Below are positions 3,001-15,733 of a stretch of DNA of 32,000 bases, in pieces. The stretch is from Sinorhizobium meliloti (lineage in GTDB: Bacteria; Pseudomonadota; Alphaproteobacteria; Rhizobiales; Rhizobiaceae): the NCBI RefSeq assembly GCF_017876815.1, contig NZ_JAGIOS010000001.1, forward strand, positions 120,001 to 152,000. The letters are read 5' to 3'. A program made the translations under genes and the position numbers. The notes under the pieces were generated by a model. It was given only the letters and a program-made list of their open reading frames with translations, was not told the origin of the DNA and made no database searches. Numbering within the stretch: position 1 is the stretch's first letter; each line of letters opens with the position of its first letter.

Positions 3001-4176
3001 GAAACCGTCGACCCCGGGACCGGAGGCGGCGAAACCGTCGACCCGGAGACTGGAGGCGGCGAAACCGTCGACCCGGGGACCGGAGGCGGCGAAACCGTCG
3101 ACCCCGGAACCGGAGGCGGCGAAACCGTCGACCCCGGGACCGGAGGCGGCGAAACGGTAATCCCGAGCTACAATCAGGGCGTGCCCGTCTACGAAACCTA
3201 TGCCCGGAACCTCCTCGGCTTCATACAACTCCCGACATTGCGCCGGCGTGCCTCCGGCGAGAGAGTTCCTGCCTTGCGCTCCTGTGGGAGCGTACCACTG
3301 AATGTCGAGGGCAATCAGACCGCCGCCTGCGCCGAGGATAATACCGTCTGGGCTCGAATCGACGGCACCCGTGCCCATGTGGAGCCCGAGGAGAGTGGCG
3401 CCCGCGTTTCGGAATACGACTCTCGTTCCTGGTTGCTGCAGGCCGGCATCGACGCACTTCTGCATAGCAGCGGCAAGGGCGAGCTGATCGGCGGCCTGAC
3501 TGCCCACTATGGCGGCATCAACACCGATGTATCTTCCTTCTATGGTGACGGCTCCATCGACACCCGCGGCTACGGCCTCGGCGCTACCCTGACCTGGTAT
3601 GGCCAGAACGGCTTCTATCTGGACGGTCAGGGCCAGCTAACCCGGTTCGACAGCGATCTCGACTCGGACATTCTTGGCCGGCTTGCCGACGGGAATGACG
3701 GGCTGGGTTATGCGGTCAGCATCGAGGCGGGCCATCGTATCGGCCTCGGCGACACGTGGGCCCTGACGCCGCAGGCGCAACTCGTTAATACCTCGGTGAA
3801 CTTCGATGACTTCGTGGACCCATACGGGGCGCGGGTTTCACTCGATGACGGAAATAGCCTGCGCGGCCGCATCGGTCTCGCACTCGATCGCGAGCAGCAA
3901 TGGCAAGGCGCCGAAGGCGACGGTCGCAGCTCGCGCCTCTACGGCACCATCGATCTATACCGTGAGTTCCTGGGCGATACCCGCGCGGATGTGTCCGGCG
4001 TCTCGTTTGGCATCGAGGCCGATGACTGGATTGGCGAAATCGGCATTGGCGGCAGCTACAACTGGGGAGACGACAAGTATTCGCTCTATGGCGAAGCCCG
4101 CGCATCCACCGGTCTATCCGATTTCGGCGGCAGCTACGCGGTACGTGCATCCGTCGGACTGAAGATGAAGTTCTGA
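1..4176 (+). CDS. Autotransporter outer-membrane protein (repetitive passenger plus C-terminal beta-barrel translocator). The 5' end is cut by the window edge.
   Basis: ORF track gives 34..4176. Frame 1 has no stop in nt 1-33 and reads VGFTLAIGAGAVSPAHA|INE, the tail of a signal peptide with an AxA cleavage site, so the true start lies upstream of the window. The passenger is G/T/A/S-rich with many degenerate beta-helix-type repeats. The last ~280 aa (WARIDG...GYGLGATLTWY...SVGLKMKF*) end in Phe, as in classical autotransporter barrels. Confidence 0.9.
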   Translation, partial: VGFTLAIGAGAVSPAHAINECGPAIGGVVTCNTSTYPKGPGTHIEYRIDTGLRATIDSVAVRWADDAGSDRPAIDIRSDKVTSEGDLIVTIEGSTVTTGEPDRIGTRSDREVGEYADGLRVTQRGAGLVSATMLSGSIITYGYNAAGIYAWQPGANENNKSDVIADFSGEDSTIETFGSYSQGIYGRTETGIGNVAVTAKDGTIVTHGLSSIGVRGLKHSASLGDGDVTVAGDNITVTTGGNLSIGMEARVEDSKSGRGNASVFVRNEAAIETSGTRAHGAQAFNLDPGDSTVVLEKSKITTRGEGAIGIRAEAGDGNAVTEVTKGSIATAGASAIGLAAISQGNMGEARVSLDGGDVSTGGDNAEGLIATAKGAGGTATARLVDGNVKTAGRDAEGLIAHAGDESIPTSINADASVIMQAGSITTTGDGAGGMIAETDIGPTPSTGKATAVQRAGTIMTSGGEIGGNEGSYAIAALSFGSGLASIEQAGGSATTAGAQSHALYALSIFGNTMVTQAAGSSAVATGAKASGLRALAGPGGGNEVTLDGKVTAGSAPAVHTICSAGSKITIGSAAEIDGSASGTAIRDGDSDLDAADETGGNSTATLAGKVTGDVVMGLGNDIINLTGGVLDGDVYGDDRLATAADGDDSFTWSGGTWLSSFFGGNGSDTATVSAQSYDGTHHYLDGGDDVSTADGWTDRLNLSGVTASANGANIVNWEIVTLDAADVTILDGALEAGSEPETGLFLTNGSVLNGSDAFALAGNMAIDGTSQFIAFGEDIANGVYSISGNLVNAGTVDMQDGGTGDVLSVGGNYTGAENSTVYIDTYLGDDASPTDHITVGGDTAGSTAISIGNAGGPSAQTVAGIRVVGVAGASSGTFVLANANSEIKETGEAAITRGAYAYALRQVDNDDWFLQSTLAEDDTGPDTGGEQAVDPETEGGETVDPGTGGGETVDPGTGGGETVDPGTGGGETVDPGTGGGETVDPGTGGGETVDPGTGGGETVDPGTGGGETVDPETGGGETVDPGTGGGETVDPGTGGGETVDPGTGGGETVIPSYNQGVPVYETYARNLLGFIQLPTLRRRASGERVPALRSCGSVPLNVEGNQTAACAEDNTVWARIDGTRAHVEPEESGARVSEYDSRSWLLQAGIDALLHSSGKGELIGGLTAHYGGINTDVSSFYGDGSIDTRGYGLGATLTWYGQNGFYLDGQGQLTRFDSDLDSDILGRLADGNDGLGYAVSIEAGHRIGLGDTWALTPQAQLVNTSVNFDDFVDPYGARVSLDDGNSLRGRIGLALDREQQWQGAEGDGRSSRLYGTIDLYREFLGDTRADVSGVSFGIEADDWIGEIGIGGSYNWGDDKYSLYGEARASTGLSDFGGSYAVRASVGLKMKF
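2791..3159 (+). repeat. In-frame 30-bp tandem array: 11 near-identical units, one degenerate leading unit and a partial last unit. It encodes (ETVDPGTGGG)n in the passenger-barrel linker.
   Basis: Units start at 2821, 2851 ... 3121 (GAAACCGTCGACCCGGGGACCGGAGGCGGC). They differ only by a few mostly synonymous substitutions (CCG GGG vs CCC GGG). Unit 8 carries G->E (GGAGAC TGG...). The unit at 2791 is degenerate (QAVDPETEGG). Confidence 0.95.
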
Positions 4177-4181
4177 GACCC

Positions 4182-4441
4182 GTTGAGATTCGGGCTACCG
4201 GGGGGCTTGTTTGATTACCTCATCCCTGTGCTCGTCCAGGGATCCAGCCAGACCAAGTCCTTGGGCTGAAAGAGCGCTTCCCGCGCCGCAGACGCGGCGC
4301 TGCTCTCATGACTAGGACAGAGATGAGGCAAGAGGAGAGATTGCAGTCCTCCGATACCGGCGCGGTTTTCCGCCCGCATCCCGCTCTAATCCTTTGGAAT
4401 CGATCACGTTCGTGATGTTAGGCCGACCCGAACCATCGTGA
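4182..4441. repeat. Intergenic mosaic element copy 1 (RIME-like, palindromic)
   Basis: Aligns over its whole length with 4452..4715 (most positions identical by eye, a few small indels). Contains an imperfect copy of the long palindrome CCTCATCCCTGTGCTCGTC(A)CAGGGATCCAGC ... and the hairpin GCGCCGC-AGAC-GCGGCGC. Confidence 0.8.
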
Positions 4442-4451
4442 ACCAAGGCCT

Positions 4452-4715
4452 GTTGAATTTGGGCTACCCGCCGCGGTTTGTTTGATTTCCTCATCCCTGT
4501 GCTCGTCACAGGGATCCAGCCAGACCAAGTCCTTGGGCTGAATGAACTCCTCCCGCGCCGCAGACGCGGCGCTGCTGGATCTCTGTGACAAGCACAGAAA
4601 TGAGGAAGGGATGCAGGTCCTCCGATACGGGCGCGGTTTTCCGCCCGCATCCCGCTCCAACCTTTTGGAATCGAGCACTTTCATGGTTTAGGCCGACCGA
4701 CCTGATCCATCGTGA
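4452..4715. repeat. Intergenic mosaic element copy 2 (RIME-like, palindromic)
   Basis: Better-preserved copy. The 32-nt arms 4489..4520 (CCTCATCCCTGTGCTCGTCACAGGGATCCAGC) and 4574..4605 (GCTGGATCTCTGTGACAAGCACAGAAATGAGG) are near reverse complements. Each arm contains its own small hairpin. The central GCGCCGCAGACGCGGCGC hairpin lies between them. Confidence 0.8.
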
Positions 4716-4763
4716 TCTCGTCTGCCGGATGAAGAGCAATATACCCCAACGATCGACGAGGAC

Positions 4764-5243
4764 TCAGCCGCGCTCCTTGAGGAGCCTGTTCTTTTGCCGG
4801 TTCCAATCGCGTTCCTTGGAGGTCTCTCGTTTGTCGTGCAGCTTCTTGCCCTTGCCGAGCGCCAGTTCCAGCTTCACCCTGCCTCGCTCATTGAAGTATA
4901 TCCGGAGCGGTATCAGCGACATCCCCTCGCGGTTGACCGCACCCTGCAGACGGTTCACTTCCCTTTTCGACAGGAGCAATTTGCGGCGGCGGCGCGTCTC
5001 GTGATTGAAGCGGTTGGCCTGCAGATATTCGGGCAGGTAGGAATTGATGAGCCAGATCTCGCCGCCTTCGTCGGTCGCGTATGATTCCGCGATATTGGCC
5101 TTCCCCTCGCGCAACGACTTGACCTCCGTGCCGGTCAGGACCAGACCGGCCTCGTAGGTGTCGACGATCTCGTAGTTGAAGCGGGCCTTGCGATTTTCCG
5201 CGACAACCTTCTTGACCGTGCGTTCGCTGCCTTTCGGTGCCAT
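4764..5243 (-). CDS. smpB: SsrA-binding protein SmpB
   Basis: 159 aa. The N-terminus ...[38 protein letters not shown]... and the basic C-terminal tail are diagnostic of SmpB. Its ATG overlaps the dapA stop by 1 nt (TGATG). Confidence 0.95.
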
Positions 5244-6127
5244 CAGTTCATCAGCCCTGCATGCCTGAGCGCCGCGTCGATAGCCGAGGCCGTGGCCGGC
5301 TCGAGCGCCGACAACAACGGCGAACGAACGGTAAAGCTCATTCGCCCGAGGCGGTTCAACGCATATTTGGCGCCGCAGACGCCCGGCTCAAGGAAGATGG
5401 CCTTGTGAAGCGGCATCAATTTGTCCTGAAGCTCCAAGGCCTTGGCATAATTGCCGGCAAGGGTGGCCTCCTGGAACTCGGCGCACAGGCGCGGCGCGAC
5501 ATTGGCGGTGACGGAAATGCAGCCGACGCCGCCATGGGCATTGAAGCCGAGCGCGGTCGCATCCTCACCCGAAAGCTGCACGAAGGCCTTGCCGCAGGCC
5601 ATGCGCTGCTCGGAAACCCTCTCGATCCTGCCGGTCGCATCCTTCACGCCGACGATCGTCGGATGGGCCTTCGCCAGCGCCGCCATGGTCTCGACGCTCA
5701 TGTCGACGACGGAACGGCCGGGAATGTTATAGATCACGATCGGCAGCTTCACGCTTTCGGCGATCGCCGCGAAGTGGGCGAAAAGACCCTTCTGCGTCGG
5801 TTTGTTGTAATAGGGCGTGACGACGAGGATCGCGTCCGCACCGGCCTTCTCCGCATGCTGCGCAAGCTCGATCGCTTCGATCGTATTATTGGACCCGGCA
5901 CCGGCGATGACCGGTACGCGCCGCGCCGACGCCTCGACGCACAGTTCCACGACCTTCTTATGCTCGTCGTGGGAAAGCGTCGGAGATTCACCCGTGGTGC
6001 CCACCGGCACAAGGCCGTGGCTGCCCTCTTTTATCTGCCACTCCACATGCGCGACGAAACTATCCGCATCAACCGAGCCGGCGGCGGTGAACGGCGTTAC
6101 GAGTGCGGGAATGGAACCCTTGAACAT
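5243..6127 (-). CDS. dapA: 4-hydroxy-tetrahydrodipicolinate synthase
   Basis: [13 protein letters not shown]...[17 protein letters not shown]...VVTPYYNKP...[10 protein letters not shown]...GVKDATG are DapA family motifs. I place the start at the internal ATG 6127, preceded by AGGAG, rather than at the track start 6166. Confidence 0.95.
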
Positions 6128-6426
6128 GCACAACTCCTGACGACCGAGGGCGCAGAATACGCTCACGCTTTGGCCGCAATCGACGGTTAAAAAACTGCCG
6201 CACCATAATCATGTGACGTGTCTGCGGCAAGCGCTGAGAGGATGCATTTCGCTTTCGTTTCCGCGCAATCGACGCCCTCGAGCGAGACCGCAATGGGCGC
6301 CGGGTTTCGGGGAACGCGCACGCGCCGGCCGGCAAGCAAGCTGACAAATGTGCTAGGTTTTCGCCGGCCGATCGGCTGTAATGGAGCGGCAATGAAGTCG
6401 AGGGATGGGGGACCACGGGGCTCTTG

Positions 6427-8469
6427 ATGCGGGGAACAGTCTTTCTGCCGGTCGCCGCCATGATCGGTGCGGGGATGCTGGCGTTTTCGGCCGACGCAGC
6501 CGAGGGTCGGATTCCTGTACCGACGAGCAAGCCGGATGCCCGCAAGATCGGCAGCCTCGAAACCGGCGAACTCTCAACTATCCTCGGCGCCGATCTGAAA
6601 AGCGGTCTCGATGCCCTCTCCGATCGGCAACCGGAAAAGGCGATCGCCGTTCGCGACCGCATGCCGGCAGGAACGCTCGACCGCCATATCCTAGCCTGGG
6701 CGATCGCGGTGTCCGGACAGAAGGGCATTCCCTCCTATGACATTGCCGCGGCGCAGCGGGAACTCCAGGGCTGGCCGGGCCTGAAATCGCTGCGCTCCCA
6801 TTCGGAACGGGCGCTTTACCGCGAGAACGCTCCGGCCGCCGATGTGATCGCCGCCTTCGGCACCACCCGTCCAGAGACGGCTGAAGGGGCGATCATCCTT
6901 GCACGCGCACTTGCAGCGCAGGGGCAGAGCTCGGCGGCCGCCACGCACCTGCGCGCATTCTGGCTGAGCGAAGCCCTGGACAAGGACACTGAAACGAAGA
7001 TCCTTTCCGAGTTTTCCGATCTGTTGACGACGGAAGACCACAGGCAGCGGATGGAAATGCTTCTCTACCGCACCCGCATAGACCAGGCCGAGCGGTTCAG
7101 CGATCTCGGCAAGGCGCAATCACTGTTCCGCGCCTGGGCCGCAGTGACCCGCGGCAGCAGCAACGCGGCCTCGCTCATCGAAGCGGTCGATGCTTCCTGG
7201 CGCAGCAAGCCTTCCTACCTCTTCATTCGCATCGAGCATTTACGCAAGCAGCAGAAATACGCCGAGGCAGCCCGGCTTCTCGACCAGATGCCGAAGGACG
7301 ACGGCGCCCTCGTCAATCCCGGAGAATGGTGGGTCGAGCAACGTATCGTCAGCCGCGGTCTGCTTGACGCCGGCGACTTCCGCGGCGCCTACCGCATCGC
7401 CGCCAACCATGCGGCAAAGCGCGCTACGGACCTCGTGGACGCGGAATTCCACGCGGGCTGGTATGCGCTTCGCGGCCTCGAGGAACCCGAGACGGCGGCG
7501 CTTCACTTTCGCAGGATTCTCGAGGCATCGAGCCGGCCGATCTCCGCCTCGCGCGCCTGGTATTGGCTGGGCCGCGCGGCCGAAGCGGGCGGCCCAGGCG
7601 ACGCGCGCGAATATTTCACCAACGCGGCGCGCTATCCGGCGACCTTCTATGGACAACTCGCCGCCGCACGCCTCGGCCAGGCGAAGCTCGACATGAGCTA
7701 CCCCTCACCCACCCAGGAAGACCGCATCCGGCTGGAAGGTCGCGAAGCCGTCAAGGCGATCGGCCGGCTCGAAGCCGCCGGCCATGGCTGGCGCGCCGAA
7801 AGTCTTTATCGTGCGCTTGCCGAGGAACTGACCAGCCCCGGGGAGCTTGCGATCCTGGCGGAGCGGGCCGAGAAGTCGGGCAATCACCAACTCTCGCTGC
7901 AGATCGGCAAGATCGCCTTCGGCCGCGGCATTGAGGTGGCTGCCCTCGCCTTTCCGATCGGAGTCATTCCGCCGAGCGCGGATATCGACGGCGCCGGCAA
8001 GGCGCTCGCCTATGCCATCGCCCGCCAGGAAAGTGCTTTCAATCCGGCCGCCATTTCGGTGGCGAATGCCCGGGGGCTCCTGCAACTCCTTCCCGGCACA
8101 GCCAAGGGCGTCGCCAGCCGCTATGGCCTCGCCTACTCGAAGGACCGTCTGACGAGCGACGCCGGCTATAATGCGACGCTTGGAGCCCATTACCTCGGCG
8201 AGCAGATCGACAGCTTCGGCGGTTCCTACATTCTCACCTTCATCGCCTATAATGCCGGCCCGCGTCGCGTTCCTGACTGGCTCGCCCGCTATGGCGATCC
8301 ACGCGGAAAGCCCATCGACGAGGTCGTGGACTGGATCGAGCGCATCCCCTTCGAGGAGACGCGCAACTATGTCCAGCGGGTGATGGAGAACTATCAGGTT
8401 TATAAGTCGCGGCTGGGACAAGATACGGATATCGTTGCGGATTTGAGGTTGGGACGCGCTTTGCCTTGA
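6427..8469 (+). CDS. Soluble lytic murein transglycosylase (Slt70-like: superhelical N-domain plus C-terminal SLT domain)
   Basis: N-terminal signal peptide MRGTVFLPVAAMIGAGMLAFSADA. C-terminal catalytic block AIARQESAFNPAAISVANARGLLQLLPGTA...YNAGP matches the SLT E-S / GLMQ / YNAG motifs. ATG at 6427, immediately after the TTG at 6424. Confidence 0.85.
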   Translation: MRGTVFLPVAAMIGAGMLAFSADAAEGRIPVPTSKPDARKIGSLETGELSTILGADLKSGLDALSDRQPEKAIAVRDRMPAGTLDRHILAWAIAVSGQKGIPSYDIAAAQRELQGWPGLKSLRSHSERALYRENAPAADVIAAFGTTRPETAEGAIILARALAAQGQSSAAATHLRAFWLSEALDKDTETKILSEFSDLLTTEDHRQRMEMLLYRTRIDQAERFSDLGKAQSLFRAWAAVTRGSSNAASLIEAVDASWRSKPSYLFIRIEHLRKQQKYAEAARLLDQMPKDDGALVNPGEWWVEQRIVSRGLLDAGDFRGAYRIAANHAAKRATDLVDAEFHAGWYALRGLEEPETAALHFRRILEASSRPISASRAWYWLGRAAEAGGPGDAREYFTNAARYPATFYGQLAAARLGQAKLDMSYPSPTQEDRIRLEGREAVKAIGRLEAAGHGWRAESLYRALAEELTSPGELAILAERAEKSGNHQLSLQIGKIAFGRGIEVAALAFPIGVIPPSADIDGAGKALAYAIARQESAFNPAAISVANARGLLQLLPGTAKGVASRYGLAYSKDRLTSDAGYNATLGAHYLGEQIDSFGGSYILTFIAYNAGPRRVPDWLARYGDPRGKPIDEVVDWIERIPFEETRNYVQRVMENYQVYKSRLGQDTDIVADLRLGRALP

Positions 8470-8636
8470 GCCCGGGCTGCGGGTGCGAACCGGACGGTCG
8501 CGCCTGACTCCAACGTTTCCCCGCGACAGCTCTGCCGAGAGAGGATCACATCATCGTGATCGTTTGGCCGCGTCCGGCACAAAATACGATTTCGGCCATT
8601 TTCCCCTGGAAGGGATTTACTTTCTCCTGAGAGGAA

Positions 8637-9125
8637 ATGGTGAGGCCAATGAAGACCTTAGCAATTGTTGCCCTGTCGCTGGCCACGGTCATCAGCAGCG
8701 TTCCGCCCGCAGAGGCATTTCCGATCGTTCCGGCTCCGAAGCCGCAGGCCGCCGACGTGCAGTTGGCGCAGTTTCCCGACAGGGCGCGTTGCCCGGGTGT
8801 TGGCTGCCCGCGTATGGGGCGGGAACGCTGGCGTGGCAATAGGCATAACTATCGTGGAAATCGCTATTACGGGAACCGGTACCACCACCGCCGCTATTAT
8901 CGCGATGACGACGACGATCTCGGCGCATTCTTTGGCGGCCTGGCAGCCGGCGCGATCGTCGGCGGCGTGCTGAGCCAGCCGAGATATGCGGCTCCGCGGT
9001 ATTCCGGCGGCGGCAACGCACATGTCGAATGGTGCTACTCGCGCTATCGCTCGTACCGGGCCTGGGACAATACGTTCCAGCCCTATAACGGCCCGAGGCG
9101 CCAGTGCTATTCGCCCTATAGCTGA
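8637..9125 (+). CDS. BA14K-family secreted protein
   Basis: Signal peptide [24 protein letters not shown]-terminal [33 protein letters not shown] is the BA14K motif. The middle is a basic/aromatic low-complexity run ([29 protein letters not shown]). The start could instead be ATG 8649. Confidence 0.8.
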
Positions 9126-9320
9126 TGAGTTTCGCACCTAAGACGTGAGTCTGAAGGGAGGAGCCGGCGCGCCTCCCTCGCCCGCATGCTCGGGCCGTCA
9201 TTCTTGCGCGGCACCGACAGTTCATCACCGAATCCCCTGCCATTTACCGCCTGATTCATCCGCGGCATGTAAGCCCGTGGCCTTGTATCTCCTATCCAGT
9301 CATAGGAATTATTTCTCACG

Positions 9321-9337
9321 TCTGACTGGAGGTCAGA
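9321..9337 (+). promoter_or_regulatory. 5'-UTR hairpin that displays the Shine-Dalgarno sequence of the porin gene
   Basis: TCTGAC-TGGAG-GTCAGA: 6-bp stem, GGAG in the loop, ATG one nt downstream. The same structure lies upstream of the second porin copy (12645..12661, minus strand) with a U.G compensation. Confidence 0.5.
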
Positions 9338-9338
9338 A

Positions 9339-10388
9339 ATGAATATCAAGAGCCTTCTTCTTGGCTCGGCTGCTGCTATGGCGGCAGTCTCCGGCGCGCA
9401 TGCTGCCGACGCTATCGTCGCTGCAGAGCCGGAGCCTATGGAATACGTCCGCGTTTGCGATGCTTTCGGCACGGGCTACTTCTACATCCCGGGCACGGAA
9501 ACCTGCCTCAAGATCGGCGGCTATATCCGCGTTCAGGGCGACTTCGGCCGTGACAATGTCAATCATCTGACCAGCTTCGATGATGACGGCACGTCCGATT
9601 GGGACATGTTCTCCCGCGCTTACATCTCGTTCGACGCGAAGAGCGATACCGAGTACGGCACGCTCACGGGCTTCTTCGCTTCCGAGTTCAATTCCGATAC
9701 GGATTCGGCCTCGGACGGCGGCGGCGACAGCCACATCGACGTCGACGAAGCCTACATCGAGCTCGGCGGCTTCCGGGCCGGCTTCTTCTACAGCTGGTGG
9801 GACAAGGGCCTGAACGGCGAAACCGACTCCATCGGCGAGAACACCGAGTTCAACTCGGTCCGCTATACCTATGACGGCGGCACTTTCCAGGTCGGCGTTG
9901 CTGTCGACGAACTCGAGGGTACTTCGACCAAGCCGAACGGCGTCGGGGTCGAAGGCATCGTATCGGCTTCGCTCGGCGGCGTGACTTTCGACCTGCTCGG
10001 CAGCTACGACACGGAATGGGAAGAAGGCGCGATCCGTGCCCTGCTCTCCGCGGATGCCGGTCCGGGCACCTTCCAGGTCGCCGGTATCTGGGCATCCGGC
10101 TCGAACGCATACTGGCATGACTCGGAGTGGGCCGTTGCTGCCTCCTACCGCTTCAATGTGAGCGACAAGCTTGCGATCACGCCCGGCGCTCAATACTGGG
10201 GCGGCCTGAACGAAAGCGACAAGCTCGGCGGCCGCTTCGACAACGATGCGGACCAGTGGCGTGTCGGCCTTACCGCCGACTACGACATCACCGAAGGTCT
10301 CGCGACCCGCTTCGCGATCAACTACACAGACCCGAGCAATGCTCCGGATTCCGTCAGCGGTTTCCTTCGCCTGCAGCGGGACTTCTAA
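9339..10388 (+). CDS. ropA: RopA/Omp2b-type outer-membrane porin (Porin_2 family), copy A
   Basis: Signal peptide MNIKSLLLGSAAAMAAVSGAHA, then ADAIVAAEPEPMEYVRVCDAFGTGYFYIPGTETCLKIGGYIRVQ, the conserved N-terminus of rhizobial RopA / Brucella Omp2 porins. C-terminal ...GFLRLQRDF ends in Phe. Confidence 0.9.
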   Translation: MNIKSLLLGSAAAMAAVSGAHAADAIVAAEPEPMEYVRVCDAFGTGYFYIPGTETCLKIGGYIRVQGDFGRDNVNHLTSFDDDGTSDWDMFSRAYISFDAKSDTEYGTLTGFFASEFNSDTDSASDGGGDSHIDVDEAYIELGGFRAGFFYSWWDKGLNGETDSIGENTEFNSVRYTYDGGTFQVGVAVDELEGTSTKPNGVGVEGIVSASLGGVTFDLLGSYDTEWEEGAIRALLSADAGPGTFQVAGIWASGSNAYWHDSEWAVAASYRFNVSDKLAITPGAQYWGGLNESDKLGGRFDNDADQWRVGLTADYDITEGLATRFAINYTDPSNAPDSVSGFLRLQRDF

Positions 10389-10411
10389 TCTGACCTAGTC
10401 AGGTAAAAGAA

Positions 10412-10442
10412 AGCCCGCAGCTCACAAGTTGGGTTGCGGGCT
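10412..10442 (+). terminator. Stem-loop downstream of porin copy A
   Basis: AGCCCGCA (10412..10419) pairs with TGCGGGCT (10435..10442). It is followed by GTTGCTGT, a weak U-tract. Confidence 0.5.
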
Positions 10443-10563
10443 GTTGCTGTACTGCAACGCAAAGTGCGCCGCCAAGGCGTTGAGATTGTTTGACTATAAG
10501 CACTGGTTTCATTGCCAGTGGTTTCTTGGCTCGTTCACGGAGAATGGGAAGGAAACGGCAAAC

Positions 10564-11496
10564 GTGACGTCGGACGCTGAAAAACAGGTAGGTGATCTCG
10601 GTTTCCCGGATATGGGTTCGGGGTATGAGGTCAACTATACCTTCGGCCGGCAAGGGCCGATCGGCGTGGTCAAGGAGACCACGCTTGCCGAATTGCTTCA
10701 GCGCTATGCCGACATCCTGTGGGACGAAGGCAGGCACAAATACAATGTGAAGGCCTTCATCGGAGAGCTCGACGAGATCTTGCTCGGTGCCCGTTTCTCC
10801 GCCTTCTCGCAGGAATTGCTCGACGGCCTCATAGGTGCGCTACGCAAGCGCGGTAACAGCAACGCGACCATCAACAGGAAGATGGCGGCGCTGGGGAAGT
10901 TGCTGCGGAAAGCGTACAAGATGGGGGACATCCACAATCTGCCGGAATTCAAACGCCAAAAGGAGAAAGCGGGGCGCCTGCGCTTCCTGGAGGCCGACGA
11001 AGAAGAGGTGCTGTTCCGCGAAATCGCCAGCCGATCGGAACTCTATCTGTACCTCTCGATATTTCTGGTGGATACCGGTGCTCGCCTGGGCGAGGCCATC
11101 GCCCTCAAATGGAACGATATTCACGAGGGCCGGGCGACATTCTGGGTGACGAAATCGGGCCGCAGCCGCACAGTCCCGCTTACGGTGAGAGCAAAAGACG
11201 CATTGAAGCGCGTCGCGGACAGGTCCCCGGGTCCATTTTCGAGAATCGACCAGCAAAAATACCGTGCTGTCTGGAACGCAGCGAAAGTGGATGCGGGCCT
11301 CGGCAACGAAGACGATCTCGTTCCCCACATTCTCCGCCATACCTGCGCCTCGCGCCTGGTCAGAGGCGGGATCGATCTCAGGCGGGTTCAGATGTGGCTA
11401 GGCCACCAGACCCTCGAGATGACGATGCGCTACGCGCATCTGGCCTCCCATGACCTCGATATGTGCGTGCCCGTACTCGAGCGTCATCTCAAGTAA
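10564..11496 (+). CDS. Site-specific tyrosine recombinase (phage-integrase family)
   Basis: Catalytic signature is intact: ...VDTGARLGEA... (Arg), HILRHTCAS (HxxR), WLGHQT (His), MRYAHL (Tyr). A SAM-like N-domain is present (ATINRKMAALGKLLRKAY). The start is uncertain: GTG 10564 (GGAAGGA upstream) or ATG 10612. The track start TTG 10429 lies inside the porin terminator hairpin and is unlikely. Confidence 0.8.
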   Translation: MTSDAEKQVGDLGFPDMGSGYEVNYTFGRQGPIGVVKETTLAELLQRYADILWDEGRHKYNVKAFIGELDEILLGARFSAFSQELLDGLIGALRKRGNSNATINRKMAALGKLLRKAYKMGDIHNLPEFKRQKEKAGRLRFLEADEEEVLFREIASRSELYLYLSIFLVDTGARLGEAIALKWNDIHEGRATFWVTKSGRSRTVPLTVRAKDALKRVADRSPGPFSRIDQQKYRAVWNAAKVDAGLGNEDDLVPHILRHTCASRLVRGGIDLRRVQMWLGHQTLEMTMRYAHLASHDLDMCVPVLERHLK

Positions 11497-11544
11497 TCGC
11501 GCATGAGCGCCGGCAGCAGCGCGCCGTCCCCGTAGCCATACTCC

Positions 11545-11577
11545 AGAAAAGAGAAAGCCCGGCTTAAAGCCGGGCTT
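11545..11577 (-). terminator. Rho-independent terminator of porin copy B
   Basis: On the minus strand, AGCCCGGC-TTTAA-GCCGGGCT is followed by TTCTCTTTTCT. Confidence 0.75.
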
Positions 11578-11605
11578 CCCTTCCACTGACCGAGGTCAGG
11601 TCAGA

Positions 11606-12643
11606 TTAGAAGTCACGCCGCAGGCGGAGGAAGCCGCTGACGTACTCGTCACCATCATCCGGATCGGTGTAGTTGATCGTGAAGCGGGTAGCGAGACCTT
11701 CCGTGATGTCGTAGTCGGTCGTGATACCAACGCGCCACTGATCGTCGTTACCGAAGCTGGTGTTCGAGTCTTGCAGGCTACCCCAGTACTGAGCAGCCGG
11801 GGTGATCGCGAACTTGTCGGAAGCGTTGAAGCGGTAAGACGCAGCAACGGTCCACTCGGAGTCAGCCCAGTAAGCGTTCGGGTTGGACGCCCAGATGCCG
11901 GCGACCTGAAGGGTGCCCGGGCCGAGGTCTGCCGAGAGCAAGCCGCGGACAGCGCCTTCTTCCCACTCGGTGTCGTAGCTGCCGAGCAAGTCGAAAGCAA
12001 CGCCGCCGAGCGTCGCGGAGACGATACCGGTAACGCCAACGCCGTTGGCCTTGGTGCTCGTGCCTTCGAGTTCGTCAACCGAGATACCGGCCTGGAAGGT
12101 GCCGCCGTCGTAGATGTAGGCGAGCGAGTTGAACTCGGTGACGTTGCCGAGCGAGTCGGTTTCGCCGTTCAGGCCCTTATCCCACCAGCTGTAGAAGAAG
12201 CCGGCCTTGAAGCCGCCGAGCTGGATGTAGGCTTCATCGACGTCGATCAGGCTGTCGCCTTCGTCGGTGTCGTTGTCGGCGTTGAACTCAGCAGCGAAGA
12301 AGCCGGTGAGCGTGCCGTATTCGGTGTCGCTCTTCGCGTCGATCGAGATGTAGGCGCGGGAGAACATGTCCCAGTCCGACGTGGACTGACCACCGAAGTC
12401 TTCCTGGTTCCAGCGATCGTCAGCTTCGTCACGACCGAATTCACCCTGGATACGGATGAAGCCGCCGATCTTGAGGCAGGTTTCCGTGCCCGGAATGTAG
12501 AAGTAGCCCGTGCCGAAAGCGTCGCAGACGCGAACGTATTCCATGGGCTCCGGCTCGGCAGCGACGATCGCGTCGGCAGCCTGGGCGCCGGAGACTGCTG
12601 CGAGAGCAGCAGCGGAGCCGAGAAGAAGGCTCTTGATGTTCAT
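11606..12643 (-). CDS. ropA: RopA/Omp2b-type outer-membrane porin, copy B
   Basis: MNIKSLLLGSAAALAAVSGAQAADAIVAAEPEPMEYVRVCDAFGTGYFYIPGTETCLKIGGFIRIQ...GFLRLRRDF. Start placed at ATG 12643, because the sequence GACTGGAGGTCAGAAATG is identical to that upstream of copy A. The 26 extra codons in the track ORF are rejected. Confidence 0.9.
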   Translation of the reverse strand: MNIKSLLLGSAAALAAVSGAQAADAIVAAEPEPMEYVRVCDAFGTGYFYIPGTETCLKIGGFIRIQGEFGRDEADDRWNQEDFGGQSTSDWDMFSRAYISIDAKSDTEYGTLTGFFAAEFNADNDTDEGDSLIDVDEAYIQLGGFKAGFFYSWWDKGLNGETDSLGNVTEFNSLAYIYDGGTFQAGISVDELEGTSTKANGVGVTGIVSATLGGVAFDLLGSYDTEWEEGAVRGLLSADLGPGTLQVAGIWASNPNAYWADSEWTVAASYRFNASDKFAITPAAQYWGSLQDSNTSFGNDDQWRVGITTDYDITEGLATRFTINYTDPDDGDEYVSGFLRLRRDF

Positions 12644-13099
12644 TTCTGACCTCCAGTCAAAAGTTTCAAACGGGTCTGGGTTTTTTTTGCTGAAGGACAG
12701 CGTTCCCTGCCCCATCCCCAACGTTCAAGAAGTCGGACGATCAACCGCCCTTGCTTCCGGAGTTGAAAATACAAAACCGGGTGGGGCGCGCAACGACCAA
12801 CTTACCAGATCGACTCCTTTGCCCTGCCCTTCCCTGATCCCTGTTGCTGAAACGACACAAAATCGCCCCAGACGGCCCGAGGGAATTAACAAAGCGTTAA
12901 GAAAATCCTTTAGCGACGGGGGTTTAGCGCGAGGTCACTCCCGGCCATCTGTTCCGGAAAGGGGCAAAAAATGGCCAGAAAGGGGGATAAAACCGGGCAA
13001 GAGCGCTCCGCGAGACCGGTCCTTGCGGAAGCCATGGGCACGCCGATCGTCGGTTCGCGCGGATGGTCGAGGTGCTTCCTGGCCGATTCCCGGCAGAAT

Positions 13100-13270
13100 C
13101 AGTGCGCAGGGATTCGCGAGTCGGCAGGCACCTCGACACAGTGCGCGCTCGCCGAGGCAATGGGTTCAGCCAAGCATGTCATCAAGCAGCAAACTCAGGA
13201 ACGTGACGGCGGTGGCGGGAATGGGAATCCGTTCGATGAACTGTTCGGACCCGGCGGCAGAGCCATTTGC
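13100..13270 (+). pseudogene. Degenerate higA-like (XRE HTH antitoxin) remnant
   Basis: 13139..13164 (CAGTGCGCGCTCGCCGAGGCAATGGG) matches higA 13712..13737 at 24/26 nt. 13196..13212 (CAGGAACGTGACGGCGG) matches higA 13777..13793 at 17/17 nt. The spacing between the two blocks is 57 nt here against 65 nt in higA, so the frame is broken. Confidence 0.35.
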
Positions 13271-13323
13271 CATTGAAATTTGAGTTATAGAGTGGTACAT
13301 ATGCCCATCGTTGGAGTGAACCT

Positions 13324-13620
13324 GTGATCGTAGGCTTTCGGGACGACTGGCTTCGGACCTTCTTTGTGGATGATGTCCGTTCCCGTAACATCCCGTACGA
13401 TCTTGAAGCTCGGTTGTTCCGCAAGCTCCAGATGATTGACGATGCCGCAACCGACCAAGACTTGCGCGTGCCGCCCAGCAATCACTTCGAGAAGCTGCGC
13501 GGCAATCTGGCGGGGCTGCATTCGATCCGCGTCAACCAGCAATGGCGGCTGATCTTCCGCTGGGATGGGACGCGCGGAGAGGCCGACGGGATTTATCTGG
13601 ACGATCACAGCTACCGATGA
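13324..13620 (+). CDS. higB: HigB-type toxin (RelE/ParE superfamily, 'plasmid maintenance system killer')
   Basis: 98 aa. MIVGFRDDWLRTFF...PPSNHFEKLRGNLAGLHSIRVNQQWRLIFRW... is the typical HigB-2/killer-protein pattern. GTG start with GGAG upstream. Toxin-first gene order, with the antitoxin 13 nt downstream. Confidence 0.8.
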   Translation: MIVGFRDDWLRTFFVDDVRSRNIPYDLEARLFRKLQMIDDAATDQDLRVPPSNHFEKLRGNLAGLHSIRVNQQWRLIFRWDGTRGEADGIYLDDHSYR

Positions 13621-13633
13621 GAGCGAGGCGAAC

Positions 13634-13942
13634 ATGCTGACCACCAAGCGCAAGCCGGCGACTGTCGGCGAGATACTGACTGAAGAGTTCATGCGGCCGA
13701 TGGGATTGACGCAGGGCGCGCTCGCCGAGGCGATGGGCGTCCAGCGCAAGCACGTCAACGAATTATGCGGCAACCGCAGGAACGTGACGGCGGCGACGGC
13801 GCTGATCCTCGCCCGCGTGTTCGGCAACAGCCCGGACTTCTGGCTCAATGTGCAGAGGCGCAACGATCTTTGGCTGGTGATGAATACGCCAAAGGAACGT
13901 GAGCGGATCGAGCGCGCGCGTCCGTTGGAGAATGCAGCCTGA
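13634..13942 (+). CDS. higA: HigA-family antitoxin (XRE-type HTH, VapI-like)
   Basis: MLTTKRKPATVGEILTEEFMRPMGLTQGALAEAMGVQRKHVNELCGNRRNVTAATALILARVFGNSPDFWLNVQ is the canonical HigA layout. Start taken at the internal ATG 13634. Confidence 0.85.
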   Translation: MLTTKRKPATVGEILTEEFMRPMGLTQGALAEAMGVQRKHVNELCGNRRNVTAATALILARVFGNSPDFWLNVQRRNDLWLVMNTPKERERIERARPLENAA

Positions 13943-13988
13943 GCACCGTCATGTGGACGAAATTGCGGGCGTCTCTGCATCTAGCAAG

Positions 13989-14222
13989 GAGATCAACATC
14001 TGCACCGTGCTGGCCGGGCAGAAGCTTGGAATCAAAGCAGTCGACGGAGCCTGCCCCGGACTTGATCCGGGGTATTGGCTCGTCAGCTTCATGCACGATG
14101 ATCTGGGGTATATCGACCTGGAGCAGAGGACTTTGCAAACCATCGACAACCCGTTCGGCACGAGGTTGTCACCCATGTCTTAAGGACGAAGTGTTACCCA
14201 TGTGTCCGGGTCGGACAGAATG
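13989..14222 (+). mobile_element. IS remnant: C-terminal ~65 codons of a DDE/integrase-core transposase plus the probable terminal repeat region
   Basis: ...INICTVLAGQKLGIKAVDG[ACPGLDPG]YWLVSFMHDDLGYIDLEQRTLQTIDNPFGTRLSPMS* resembles, from memory, the conserved C-terminus of an IS family common in Rhizobiales. No N-terminal or catalytic part is present. The word GT(C/T)ACCCATGT occurs twice at the end (14169.., 14193..), as at IS termini. Confidence 0.5.
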
Positions 14223-14235
14223 GGCCGAAATAAAA

Positions 14236-14325
14236 TGGCGGAGAAGAAGGGATTCGAACCCTCGATACCGTTTCCGGTATACTCCCTTAGCAGGGGAGCG
14301 CCTTCGACCACTCGGCCACCTCTCC
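14236..14325 (-). tRNA. tRNA-Ser (anticodon GCU), 90 nt, encoded CCA
   Basis: Reverse complement: GGAGAGGTGGCCGAGTGGTCGAAGGCGCTCCCCTGCTAAGGGAGTATACCGGAAACGGTATCGAGGGTTCGAATCCCTTCTTCTCCGCCA. The 7-bp acceptor stem has one G.U pair. Anticodon arm is CTCCC-CTGCTAA-GGGAG. It has the long variable arm typical of tRNA-Ser and a GGTTCGAATCC T-loop. Confidence 0.95.
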
Positions 14326-14335
14326 GTTAGCGCCT

Positions 14336-14364
14336 GACTAGTGTCACGGCGTTTCCAATGCAAG
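14336..14364 (-). promoter_or_regulatory. Candidate sigma70-type promoter of tRNA-Ser
   Basis: Minus strand reads CTTGCA-N17-CTAGTC (rhizobial consensus CTTGAC-N17-CTATAT). The -10 element ends 10 nt upstream of the mature tRNA 5' end. Confidence 0.4.
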
Positions 14365-14611
14365 ATTTTTTTGTCGAATTTCAGGAAATCATCCGATTTT
14401 CATCCGCTTCGGGCCGCGGCGCCCCCCGAGTCATATGAGAACTAGGACCGCATCGGGCAATCGGGAAAGGTCTTGTCCGTCGCGCATGAAACGTCACAAC
14501 GCCAAGTGCACTGACTTCTTCCGGGGGAATTCTTTCTCTGCGTCGATTCCGATTCCCATCCTTATGCGATAAGTTCCGCGGGCATTTCCGAACGGAGTAC
14601 GGTTTTTCAAG

Positions 14612-15733
14612 ATGTCCGCATTCTCACGCTTCACGCCACTCATCCAATCCCTGCCGGCCAGCGTTCCCTTTGTCGGCCCGGAAGCCCTCGAGCGTCAGCA
14701 CGGCCGCAAGATTGCGGCACGCATCGGCGCCAATGAGAGCGGCTTCGGCCCGGCACCATCCGTGTTGCTCGCCATCCGCCAGGCGGCCGGCGACACCTGG
14801 AAATATGCCGATCCCGAAAACCACGACCTGAAGCAGGCGCTCGCCCGCCATCTCGGCACCTCTCCCGCCAATATCGCCATCGGAGAGGGTATCGACGGCC
14901 TCCTCGGGCAGATCGTGCGGCTCGTCGTGGAAGCCGGCGCGCCGGTGGTGACTTCTCTCGGAGGCTATCCGACCTTCAACTATCATGTCGCGGGCCATGG
15001 CGGGCGGCTGGTCACGGTACCCTATGCCGACGACCGGGAAGATCTCGAAGGACTGCTCGCCGCCGTGGGCCGTGAGAATGCACCGCTCGTCTATCTGGCC
15101 AATCCCGACAATCCGATGGGAAGCTGGTGGCCCGCCGAGCGCGTCGTCGCCTTCGCGCAGGCCCTGCCGGAAACGACGCTCCTCGTACTCGACGAAGCCT
15201 ATTGCGAAACGGCGCCGCGGGATGCGCTCCCGCCGATCGAAAGCCTTATCGACAAACCCAACGTCATTCGCGCGCGCACCTTTTCGAAGGCCTACGGCCT
15301 CGCAGGCGCGCGCATCGGCTATACGCTGTCGACGCCGGGGACCGCCCAGGCCTTCGACAAGATCCGCAATCATTTCGGTATGAGCCGCATCGGCGTGGCA
15401 GCAGCAATCGCCGCTTTGGCCGATCAGGACTATTTGAAGGAAGTCACGCTCAAAATCGCGAACTCACGGCAAAGGATCGGCCGCATAGCTGCCGATAGCG
15501 GACTCGCCCCCCTGCCCTCAGCCACGAATTTCGTGGCTGTCGATTGTGGAAAGGATGCAAGCTATGCACGGGCGATCGTCGATCGGCTGATGAGCGATCA
15601 CGGGATCTTCATCCGCATGCCCGGCGTCGCGCCGCTCAACCGCTGCATCCGTATCAGCACCGCGCCCGATGCGGAAATGGATCTTCTTGCGGCCGCGCTT
15701 CCGGAGGTGATCAGGAGTTTGGCCGCCACCTGA
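14612..15733 (+). CDS. hisC: Histidinol-phosphate aminotransferase family (class II PLP aminotransferase)
   Basis: 373 aa. ...ARIGANESGFGP..., ...LANPDNPMG..., ...LVLDEAYCE..., and the PLP-lysine block RTFSKAYGLAGARIGY. Confidence 0.8.
   Translation: MSAFSRFTPLIQSLPASVPFVGPEALERQHGRKIAARIGANESGFGPAPSVLLAIRQAAGDTWKYADPENHDLKQALARHLGTSPANIAIGEGIDGLLGQIVRLVVEAGAPVVTSLGGYPTFNYHVAGHGGRLVTVPYADDREDLEGLLAAVGRENAPLVYLANPDNPMGSWWPAERVVAFAQALPETTLLVLDEAYCETAPRDALPPIESLIDKPNVIRARTFSKAYGLAGARIGYTLSTPGTAQAFDKIRNHFGMSRIGVAAAIAALADQDYLKEVTLKIANSRQRIGRIAADSGLAPLPSATNFVAVDCGKDASYARAIVDRLMSDHGIFIRMPGVAPLNRCIRISTAPDAEMDLLAAALPEVIRSLAAT

Follow-up and report, generated by a model that had tools for sequence, protein, structure and literature searches.

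The window analyzed here is a stretch of 32,000 nucleotides from Sinorhizobium meliloti (NCBI RefSeq assembly GCF_017876815.1, contig NZ_JAGIOS010000001.1, positions 120,001 to 152,000 of the forward strand), and coordinates count from its first letter unless another contig is named. Within it, two porin genes, here called porin A and porin B, face each other across the gene for a tyrosine integrase, int1 (Table 1). Each porin is preceded by a 17-bp palindrome, the core, which overlaps the Shine-Dalgarno (SD) sequence. We deal with the segment between the two cores and with its possible function as a unit of porin exchange.

The porin pair and its integrase

The initial annotation described two convergent porin genes, and both open reading frames are indeed present and match the Pfam family Porin_2 (PF02530) far above its cutoff of 22 bits (389.8 bits and E 2e-116 for porin A, 364.7 bits and E 8e-109 for porin B). 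The AlphaFold2 model of porin A (predicted local distance difference test [pLDDT] score, 84; predicted template modeling [pTM] score, 0.77) has 16 strands, and its top fold matches are trimeric porins of the OmpC/OmpF/PorB type. Both proteins end in RDF, with a C-terminal Phe, and the model predicts a 16-stranded beta-barrel with long external loops, as in other members of Porin_2. The two porins share 78% amino acid identity and 81% coding-DNA identity, with 10 gapped columns. Their similarity runs, as had been proposed, from the SD hairpin to 8 nt past the stop codons, the limits of the inverted repeat in our alignment being 9318/12664 (21 nt 5' of each ATG) and 10396/11598, and GACTGGAGGTCAGAAATG and GACTTCTAATCTGACCT are the same in both copies and lie where they had first been placed.

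The differences between the two proteins are concentrated in four segments that had been taken for surface loops, and in the AlphaFold2 model they do correspond to loops L1 (residues 71-87), L2 (120-131), L7 (292-299), and L8 (333-337). Identity is 36% in these loops, which hold 9 of the 10 indel columns, versus 84% in the barrel, and the nonsynonymous divergence (dN) is 0.57 versus 0.09. A recount agrees with the 5 differences noted within the first 72 residues; in the first 66 nt, the 5 differences in synonymous codons stand, and the total is 8 rather than 7. The longest identical runs, estimated at about 25-35 nt, measure 34, 27, 26, 26, and 21 nt. We also agree that there has been no recent homogenization, as the synonymous divergence (dS) is 0.63 and no conversion, exchange, or mosaic tract of the kind known from omp2a/omp2b was found between porins A and B in 120-nt windows.

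The two copies have quite different relationships to other strains. Porin A is uniformly divergent, with 75-82% nucleotide identity to every relative, while porin B is 95% identical to its Sinorhizobium medicae orthologue, in flanks that are 82-84% identical. These values, together with its length of 1,038 bp, fit SMc02396 (ropA1)/Smed_0668, the one chromosomal gene reported to have been transferred between S. meliloti and S. medicae (PMC3410850), so we infer that porin B is ropA1 and porin A is ropA2. The S. medicae-like tract comprises porin B and about 450 bp upstream (window 11534..13117 versus L002 7105..8687; 92-95% identity, with 82-84% in the neighboring DNA), and, as it runs past the core, that particular transfer looks like a homologous replacement and not a cassette insertion. 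A protein identical to porin A is present in 115 index blocks of public assemblies, and one identical to porin B on just 2 contigs; among strains, polymorphism is far greater in the copy that sits at the expression site.

The spacer between the repeats (10397..11597) contains, as described before, a single recombinase gene, int1 (PF00589; 98.8 bits against a cutoff of 27.1, E 4e-28), and two terminator-like hairpins, the one behind porin A (10407..10445) identified by eye. The repeat coordinates used to bound this 1.2-kb spacer were right, but the 3' end belongs to the porins' own 3' untranslated region (UTR). The S. terangae orthologue, without an integrase at that place, is followed by the same 3' UTR and terminator, so the 3' end of the repeat, with its palindrome (TAATCTGACCT..), was ruled out as the junction of an element.

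The start of int1 is most likely the GTG at 10564 (GGAAGGAAA upstream), and not the TTG at 10429 inside the porin A terminator, because homologues have about 310 residues. Its catalytic residues (R, K, H-x-x-R, H, and Y), reported as intact, all align with those of the phage P2 integrase (5c6k), which is the best match among solved structures and aligns along the whole of int1 (E 4.5e-20), followed by the HP1-type 1aih (E 1.2e-14); int1 also matches phrog_1. Despite this likeness, the nearest phage integrases are only ~34% identical, and most copies of the int1 family are found without phage genes. With XerC and XerD, int1 shares the catalytic domain, and some of its homologues bear the name XerC or XerD in their source records; however, it scores 82.2 and 80.9 bits against equivalog cutoffs of 335 and 330, and its context is a porin gene and not a dif site. 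It is also far below the cutoffs of the integron integrases (56.8 against 265 for TIGR02249 and 34.4 against 435 for PRK15417). Within Sinorhizobium, the dN/dS of the integrase is 0.04-0.10 at a dS of 0.56-1.8. None of 81 copies has an internal stop, all 81 keep K, H-x-x-R-H, LGH, and Y, and the box I pattern is matched in 71. By these measures, the gene is under strong purifying selection and not a decaying remnant. In one strain, a DDE_3 transposase gene lies between porin A and int1 (L124, 7749..8719).

Table 1. Features of the porin locus in the window, in order of position.
Feature	Coordinates	Strand	Basis or remark
SLT-domain lytic transglycosylase	6424..8469	+	Pfam SLT; left flank of the locus kept across Rhizobiales (tblastn synteny)
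BA14K-like protein	8637..9125	+	Pfam BA14K; left neighbor in Sinorhizobium
E-type flank of porin A (..CCAGTCATAGGAATTATTTCTCACG)	9285..9320	+	Resembles right end of mobile module (..CAGTCAGATGAGGAAAAACTTTCCGAT); by eye, weak homology
Core A, TCTGAC-TGGAG-GTCAGA, on the SD sequence of porin A	9321..9337	+	One end of the putative invertible segment
Porin A, 349 aa, RopA/Omp2-type, putative ropA2	9339..10388	+	Pfam Porin_2, AlphaFold2
Porin A 3' UTR: small palindrome TCTGACCTAGTCAGG and terminator-like hairpin	10389..10445	+	Sequence, alignment
int1, P2/HP1-like tyrosine integrase, 310 aa	10564..11496	+	PF00589; longest open reading frame from the TTG at 10429
Porin B terminator-like hairpin	11552..11580	-	Also 3' of S. 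terangae orthologue
Porin B, 345 aa, putative ropA1/SMc02396	11606..12643	-	Pfam Porin_2; conserved expression site
Core B, TTTGAC-TGGAG-GTCAGA (sense)	12645..12661	-	Other end of the putative invertible segment; empty attachment site
P leader (GGGGATGGGGCAGGGAACGCTGTCCTTCAGC..CCCAGACCC..GAAAC), ~80 nt	12662..12740	-	Precedes porin B
orf101 (related to part of HigA), higB (13324..13620), and higA (~13634..13942)	12971..13942	+	Variable cargo, porin B to tRNA
tRNA-Ser(GCT)	14236..14325	-	Constant member of the locus in all genera
hisC-like aminotransferase	14612..15733	+	Conserved right flank

The core palindrome and the porin-integrase modules

A scan of a genome collection with the integrase gave 440 matched stretches (65-97% identity), from which 80 loci (L001-L080) were fetched. 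Wherever the flank sufficed, the integrase gene follows a same-strand Porin_2 gene at a distance of 200-350 bp, so that in the window it belongs with porin A and not with porin B. Every porin of the locus, in every genus, has TGACTGGAGGTCA directly 5' of its ATG, overlapping the SD sequence, while extra unlinked porins in the fetched loci lack it. The arms of the palindrome co-vary between genera (TCTGAC/GTCAGA, TTTGAC/GTCAAA, and ATTGAC/GTCAAT), and the DNA upstream of it is of just two types. One, the P leader (GGGGATGGGG..CCCAGACCC..GAAAC), hardly varies and precedes one porin per locus in all genera of three families; the other, the E flank, frequently ends in CGATTCTGAC, of which porin A in the window has the variant CTCACGTCTGAC. 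The element-borne, E-type site is a perfect palindrome, whereas the expressed, P-type site is imperfect.

Several S. meliloti genomes (L081, L082, L085, L087, and more) carry an additional 2,316 bp at core B, with a third porin gene, porC, and a second integrase gene, int2 (this module is cassette 2). Apart from this module, L081 is 99.85% identical to the window, so the same site can be seen empty in one genome and filled in the other, as expected of a discrete, site-specific integrative element. The junctions are ..GAAACTTTTGAC/TGGAGGTCAGAAATG-porC..int2..CCGATTCTGAC/TGGAGGTCAGAAATG-porB (here and below, the slash marks the junction) and place the insertion directly downstream of the conserved P leader, a putative promoter, the cassette itself being promoterless by prediction. 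As the left copy is wholly porC-like and the right copy wholly porB-like, the crossover in L081 is confined to -4..+48 around the core, within 1,092 bp of 95% homology.

Those genomes also have this module, 99.8% identical, on a 1.2-1.4 Mb replicon, and in PLSDB it is present on 11 megaplasmids of S. meliloti and S. medicae, with the junctions TTTTGTC/TGGAGG.. and ..GATTCTGAC/TAGCAGTCA (the right end also as ..GATTCTGAC/TAGCAGTCAATG), and the target reconstructed from them, GATTTTGTC-TAGCA-GTCAAT, resembles the core. Plasmid p1 of E. adhaerens has an 82%-identical module with different flanks at the same pseudo-core. Two Neorhizobium genomes (L013 and L017) have modules of 3,482 bp (porin-porin-integrase) and 2,277 bp (porin-integrase), each at a second site, and a plasmid of P. 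flavum has a further copy; the ends in these are GAC/TGGAGG.. and ..GATTTTGAC/TGATGRTCAGAAT. The ends GAC/TGGAGG.. and ..GATTYTGAC/ are thus common to the chromosomal core, the megaplasmids, E. adhaerens p1, both Neorhizobium sites, and the P. flavum plasmid, and the target sequences are similar to the core. There are at least five independent insertions into nonhomologous DNA with identical ends and without target duplication, the pattern that would be expected of a tyrosine recombinase, and the integrase is the sole recombinase in the module. The plasmids that bear modules are typed as conjugative, and the int2 protein of S. meliloti is 100% identical to the integrase of S. medicae pSymA.

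These modules bear on an earlier suggestion that the recombinase is the remnant of an element that delivered or duplicated the second porin allele. We find it supported in a corrected form. Discrete porin-integrase modules with precise ends exist, but the integrase is linked to porin A rather than to the second copy, and an enzyme with such a low dN/dS, intact in 81 of 81 copies and syntenic in three families, is no remnant.

Two other observations concern the modules. The secondary targets in L010, L013, L017, L019, and L103 are long perfect palindromes with arms of 20-45 bp and an outer sequence that differs from site to site, each centered on two head-to-head core-like sites, TTTGAC TGATG GTCAGAAT. 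In the IMG/VR contig L128 (IMGVR_UViG_3300022687_000004, 1..14587), which extends from the 3' end of an int1-family integrase gene to an E flank, core, and porin start, 14 kb of portal, protease-capsid, large terminase, tail-completion, and minor-tail genes separate the integrase from the next core. This contig may represent a phage-sized relative of the porin-integrase module, and its head and tail genes hint at a phage origin.

Conservation of the locus and inversion between cores

The locus is syntenic in three families, Rhizobiaceae, Phyllobacteriaceae, and Brucellaceae, with representatives in Sinorhizobium/Ensifer, Rhizobium, Agrobacterium, Neorhizobium, Ciceribacter, Aminobacter, Mesorhizobium, Phyllobacterium, Nitratireductor, and Ochrobactrum-type Brucella. 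It lies between the SLT and hisC-like genes and always contains tRNA-Ser(GCT), at least two porins, and an integrase directly 3' of a porin, and the integrase is as conserved across families (65-70%) as the flanking housekeeping genes. In a protein search for the integrase, the only Brucella among the matches listed were of the Ochrobactrum type, with no cluster that was clearly B. melitensis or B. abortus. Written with SLT at the left, there are four layouts. Type I, found in most genera, is SLT> <porin tRNA porin> int> hisC>. Type II is <porin <int <porin <tRNA, all on the strand opposite to SLT and with porins on both sides of the integrase; it was seen in S. terangae, S. chiapasense, Neorhizobium, and Pararhizobium. 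Type III, porin> int> <porin tRNA, is that of the window and of five other Sinorhizobium/Ensifer species, and in type IV, seen in two Mesorhizobium species, the whole block is inverted.

The constant presence of tRNA-Ser invites the explanation that the integrase is a relic of a genomic island targeting this tRNA, with higBA as the rest of its cargo and an accidental link to the porins. Integrases of the P2/HP1 type often use tRNA genes, the content of the DNA beside the tRNA is not constant (higBA in the window, but a DNA ligase gene in certain strains), and IMG/VR predictions cover the region. Against this, porin B separates the integrase from the tRNA, the position and orientation of the tRNA vary while the porin-integrase adjacency never does, and selection on the integrase is strong. 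An island with att repeats was ruled out, as a search of 8400..14140 in direct and inverted orientation found no copy of any part of the tRNA-Ser region, its 3' end included, that reaches 12 nt, and we consider the island origin very improbable.

The right half of the locus has further variation of its own. The DNA ligase gene (DNA_ligase_A_M/A_C) lies on the hisC side of tRNA-Ser in five S. meliloti genomes (L091, L093, L097, L116, and L125), where other strains have the hisC-like gene directly, which suggests another variable insertion at the tRNA-Ser boundary. In S. medicae, tRNA-Ser and 68 bp upstream are inverted with respect to the window (L002 9946..10035 versus 14236..14325), with the same distance to hisC and no porin core on that side. 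orf101, which precedes the higB/higA toxin-antitoxin pair, repeats part of higA (13135..13218 versus 13708..13799, 82-90% identical), and in Ensifer sp. USDA 6670 (L001) just a fragment of higA remains. A great many public contigs with the integrase or BA14K gene are just 1-5 kb long, so short-read assemblies evidently break at the repeated porins and the locus is systematically fragmented in drafts.

In the window, the inverted cores A and B flank int1 in the geometry of an invertible switch, and an exact-match scan for the hybrid junction (porin A flank joined to porin B start) found one metagenome contig, L114 (Ga0209281_1004145, 4,436 bp). Its positions 1-977 agree with window 8346-9322 in 976 of 977 bases. 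From 978 to 4316 it reads as window 9321-12659 in reverse complement, a stretch of 3,339 bp in which just 3 bases differ. What follows is the E flank of cassette 2, and a 10-nt deletion seen nowhere else in that part means that L114 is no chimera of strains already known. The two junctions are located within TCTGACTGGAGGTCAGAAATGAA, a 23-nt block that contains the palindrome, limited by a flank-specific base on one side and by an AAT/AAC polymorphism in codon 2 on the other. Under a homology-driven model, this block would be expected to take 5-8% of crossovers, because there are identity blocks of 34, 27, 26, and 26 nt further in. The complementary junction (P leader joined to porin A start) had 0 matches in metagenomes, which is consistent with an L114 strain that carries cassette 2.

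Inversion is also apparent in type I loci. The leader faces the porin without a linked integrase in 17 species and the integrase-linked porin in 14, which, together with L114 and the window, means that both orientations exist. The segment that flips (P leader, tRNA-Ser, and E flank) takes the tRNA with it in all but 2 cases, and mapping onto the integrase tree gives at least 9 flips among 37 species. L025 and L036, two Aminobacter, form the closest inverted pair; the exchange of their upstream regions extends to position -2 from the core, and the next informative site is more than 200 nt inside the gene.

According to the first of two alternatives in the initial annotation, the crossover would take place within the porin bodies, flipping the integrase segment and swapping the 3' halves to produce mosaic loop sets. 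The inverted-repeat geometry permits this and the loop differences are large. However, we saw neither a flip of just the integrase nor a chimeric A/B gene in any assembly, some 35 S. meliloti assemblies share one orientation, the A/B divergence in synonymous sites and the uniform divergence of porin A argue against exchange, and L114, the sole isomer, crosses over at the 5' palindromes and moves both genes whole. We find this explanation hardly credible. The wider idea of a surface-loop repertoire fares better: a recombining repertoire does exist in the family, with paralogues 88-96% alike in other species, but not as mosaics of porins A and B in the window.

Ordinary homologous recombination or gene conversion between inverted paralogues is a more serious competitor. 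The integrase would then be a passenger, and the palindrome the conserved ribosome-binding region where homology starts. Paralogues within a genome can indeed be closer than orthologues (96% in L003, 91% in L005, and 90% in L004), gene conversion is documented for Brucella omp2 (PMC7050475), recombination of ropA1 with ropA2 gave rise to a mutant of Agrobacterium that resists phage (PMC10132094), and the 5' ~200 nt are the same in all four porins of the Aminobacter pair. Homologous recombination does not account for insertions that have the same ends in unrelated DNA without flanking homology, nor for crossovers confined to 23 bp (L114) or 52 bp (L081) despite longer blocks of identity elsewhere; the invariant porin-integrase adjacency, the selection on the integrase, and the lack of conversion tracts between porins A and B also speak against it. 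As a general explanation of the locus, we regard it as unlikely.

A last competitor takes the palindrome for a pure mRNA element, an SD hairpin or the binding site of a regulator, and the junctions and L114 for coincidence or misassembly. RNAalifold does predict a core hairpin with GGAG in its loop, at the overlap with the SD sequence, and L114 is one short metagenome contig. In the P leader, RNAalifold pairs GGGG..GGGG with CCC..CCC, the leader being invariant, so that covariation is uninformative, and neither the core nor the leader has an Rfam match. But at least five independent insertions end at the same dinucleotide, the inverted identity shared in L114 is just 23 nt, far under read length, and it is the element-borne site that is the perfect palindrome and the expressed one that is imperfect. 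We judge a function in mRNA alone to be highly improbable.

A candidate mechanism and its significance

The reading that we prefer, and hold to be reasonably probable, is that 9321..12661 is a unit of a porin-exchange locus spread throughout Rhizobiales, in which the 17-bp SD palindrome serves as the crossover site of the adjacent P2-like integrase. The comparisons of sequence best support a system in which porin cassettes are inserted and inverted site-specifically at a core that lies on the SD sequence. Each porin of the locus begins with the palindrome TYTGAC-TGGAG-GTCARA, which would be the core site of the P2-like integrase encoded downstream. The integrase would bind the dyad arms and exchange strands in or beside TGGAG. 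A promoterless module integrating at a resident core would bring the incoming porin behind the resident P leader and displace the resident porin downstream, past the integrase, while inversion between oppositely oriented cores would swap which porin follows which upstream region. In the window, porin B occupies the conserved expression site behind the P leader, and porin A with int1 would be a porin-integrase module that became fixed in Sinorhizobium beside the 3' end of porin B. This copy looks immobilized, as the right-end motif is missing, the arrangement is genus-wide, and int1 is frameshifted in some strains. These events presumably change porin expression, and their benefit may be an altered surface where phages find their receptor.

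Several points weigh against this mechanism. The integrase is a putative catalyst at the core, and the palindrome could equally be a translation or RNA element. The canonical right end of the module (GATTYTGAC) is absent 3' of int1, both in the window and in type I loci, and 4 of 15 S. meliloti assemblies (L095, L096, L098, and L100) have the same 1-nt deletion in int1, which is either a true frameshift or a sequencing error. The empty megaplasmid site was not found in PLSDB. The inverted isomer is a single metagenome contig, while the ~35 S. meliloti assemblies agree in their orientation, as do the 10 strains sampled from one Brucella/Ochrobactrum species; nor did the isomer appear among isolate assemblies in index look-ups, which merge places holding the same proteins. 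In the Aminobacter pair, the crossover is inseparable from the ~200 nt of identical 5' coding sequence, so homologous recombination is possible there. Given this uniformity in the two species sampled, the events are rare, and fast phase variation is not supported in these species. The inversions are events on evolutionary time scales.

The proposed system can be compared with others in which a recombinase decides on the expressed allele. Inversions of this kind are known from the pneumococcal hsdS genes (CreX), the fim switch (FimB/FimE), the R64 shufflon (Rci), and the sap promoter of Campylobacter fetus, the last being RecA dependent. In these, as in the proposed system, inverted repeats bound a segment at a recombinase gene, and inversion sets which surface or specificity allele follows the promoter; the sap arrangement, a promoter segment between opposed homologues with conserved 5' ends, is close to type I. 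The locus departs from inversion systems in that its orientation is fixed within each of the two species and the same enzyme family also integrates modules elsewhere. With integrons, it would share promoterless cassettes placed by a tyrosine recombinase beside a resident promoter at dyad-symmetric sites, and tandem arrays, such as the porin-porin-integrase-porin-porin of Neorhizobium. Here, however, each cassette has its own integrase and carries only porins, and it is targeted to a paralogue, at the ribosome-binding site. The system appears to follow the cassette logic of integrons and the inversion logic of tyrosine-recombinase switches, with an enzyme that is neither IntI nor Xer.

The closest parallel in gene content is omp2a/omp2b of Brucella, a linked, opposite-facing Porin_2 pair with variation concentrated in loops and sequence exchange between copies, for which gene conversion is the accepted source of variation; Omp2b is the essential porin and a typing and antigen marker (PMC7050475). 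The loci of Ochrobactrum-type Brucella are syntenic with that of the window (porin, tRNA-Ser, porin, integrase, and hisC), but their porins diverge around tRNA-Ser with the integrase outside the pair, while those of the window converge on the integrase. Among the papers that we found, the one on omp2 included, there is no mention of an integrase, a tRNA, or a core palindrome or recombination site at these porins. It is conceivable, and we suggest it tentatively, that Rhizobiales, including the Brucella-group omp2 locus, have a dedicated, integrase-driven porin exchange, in which promoterless porin-integrase cassettes carried by conjugative megaplasmids (and in at least one case accompanied by phage structural genes) integrate at the SD palindrome, replace the expressed receptor, and archive the old porin, which inversion can later bring back into expression.

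According to Crook et al. (2013), as cited in PMC6992544 and PMC10132094, RopA1 is the major porin of S. meliloti, is essential, and serves many phages as their receptor, and in an Agrobacterium strain recombination between ropA1 and ropA2 leads to phage resistance (PMC10132094). If the mechanism is true, site-specific insertion, stacking, and inversion of whole porins would explain why no surface proteins vary more than these porins, why reports of exchange between S. meliloti and S. medicae name ropA1 as the sole chromosomal gene (PMC3410850), and why short-read assemblies break at the locus. It would also add a case of a recombination site embedded in a translation signal, and the integrase with its 17-bp site would make both the phage resistance of inoculant rhizobia and the variation of omp2 accessible to direct tests.

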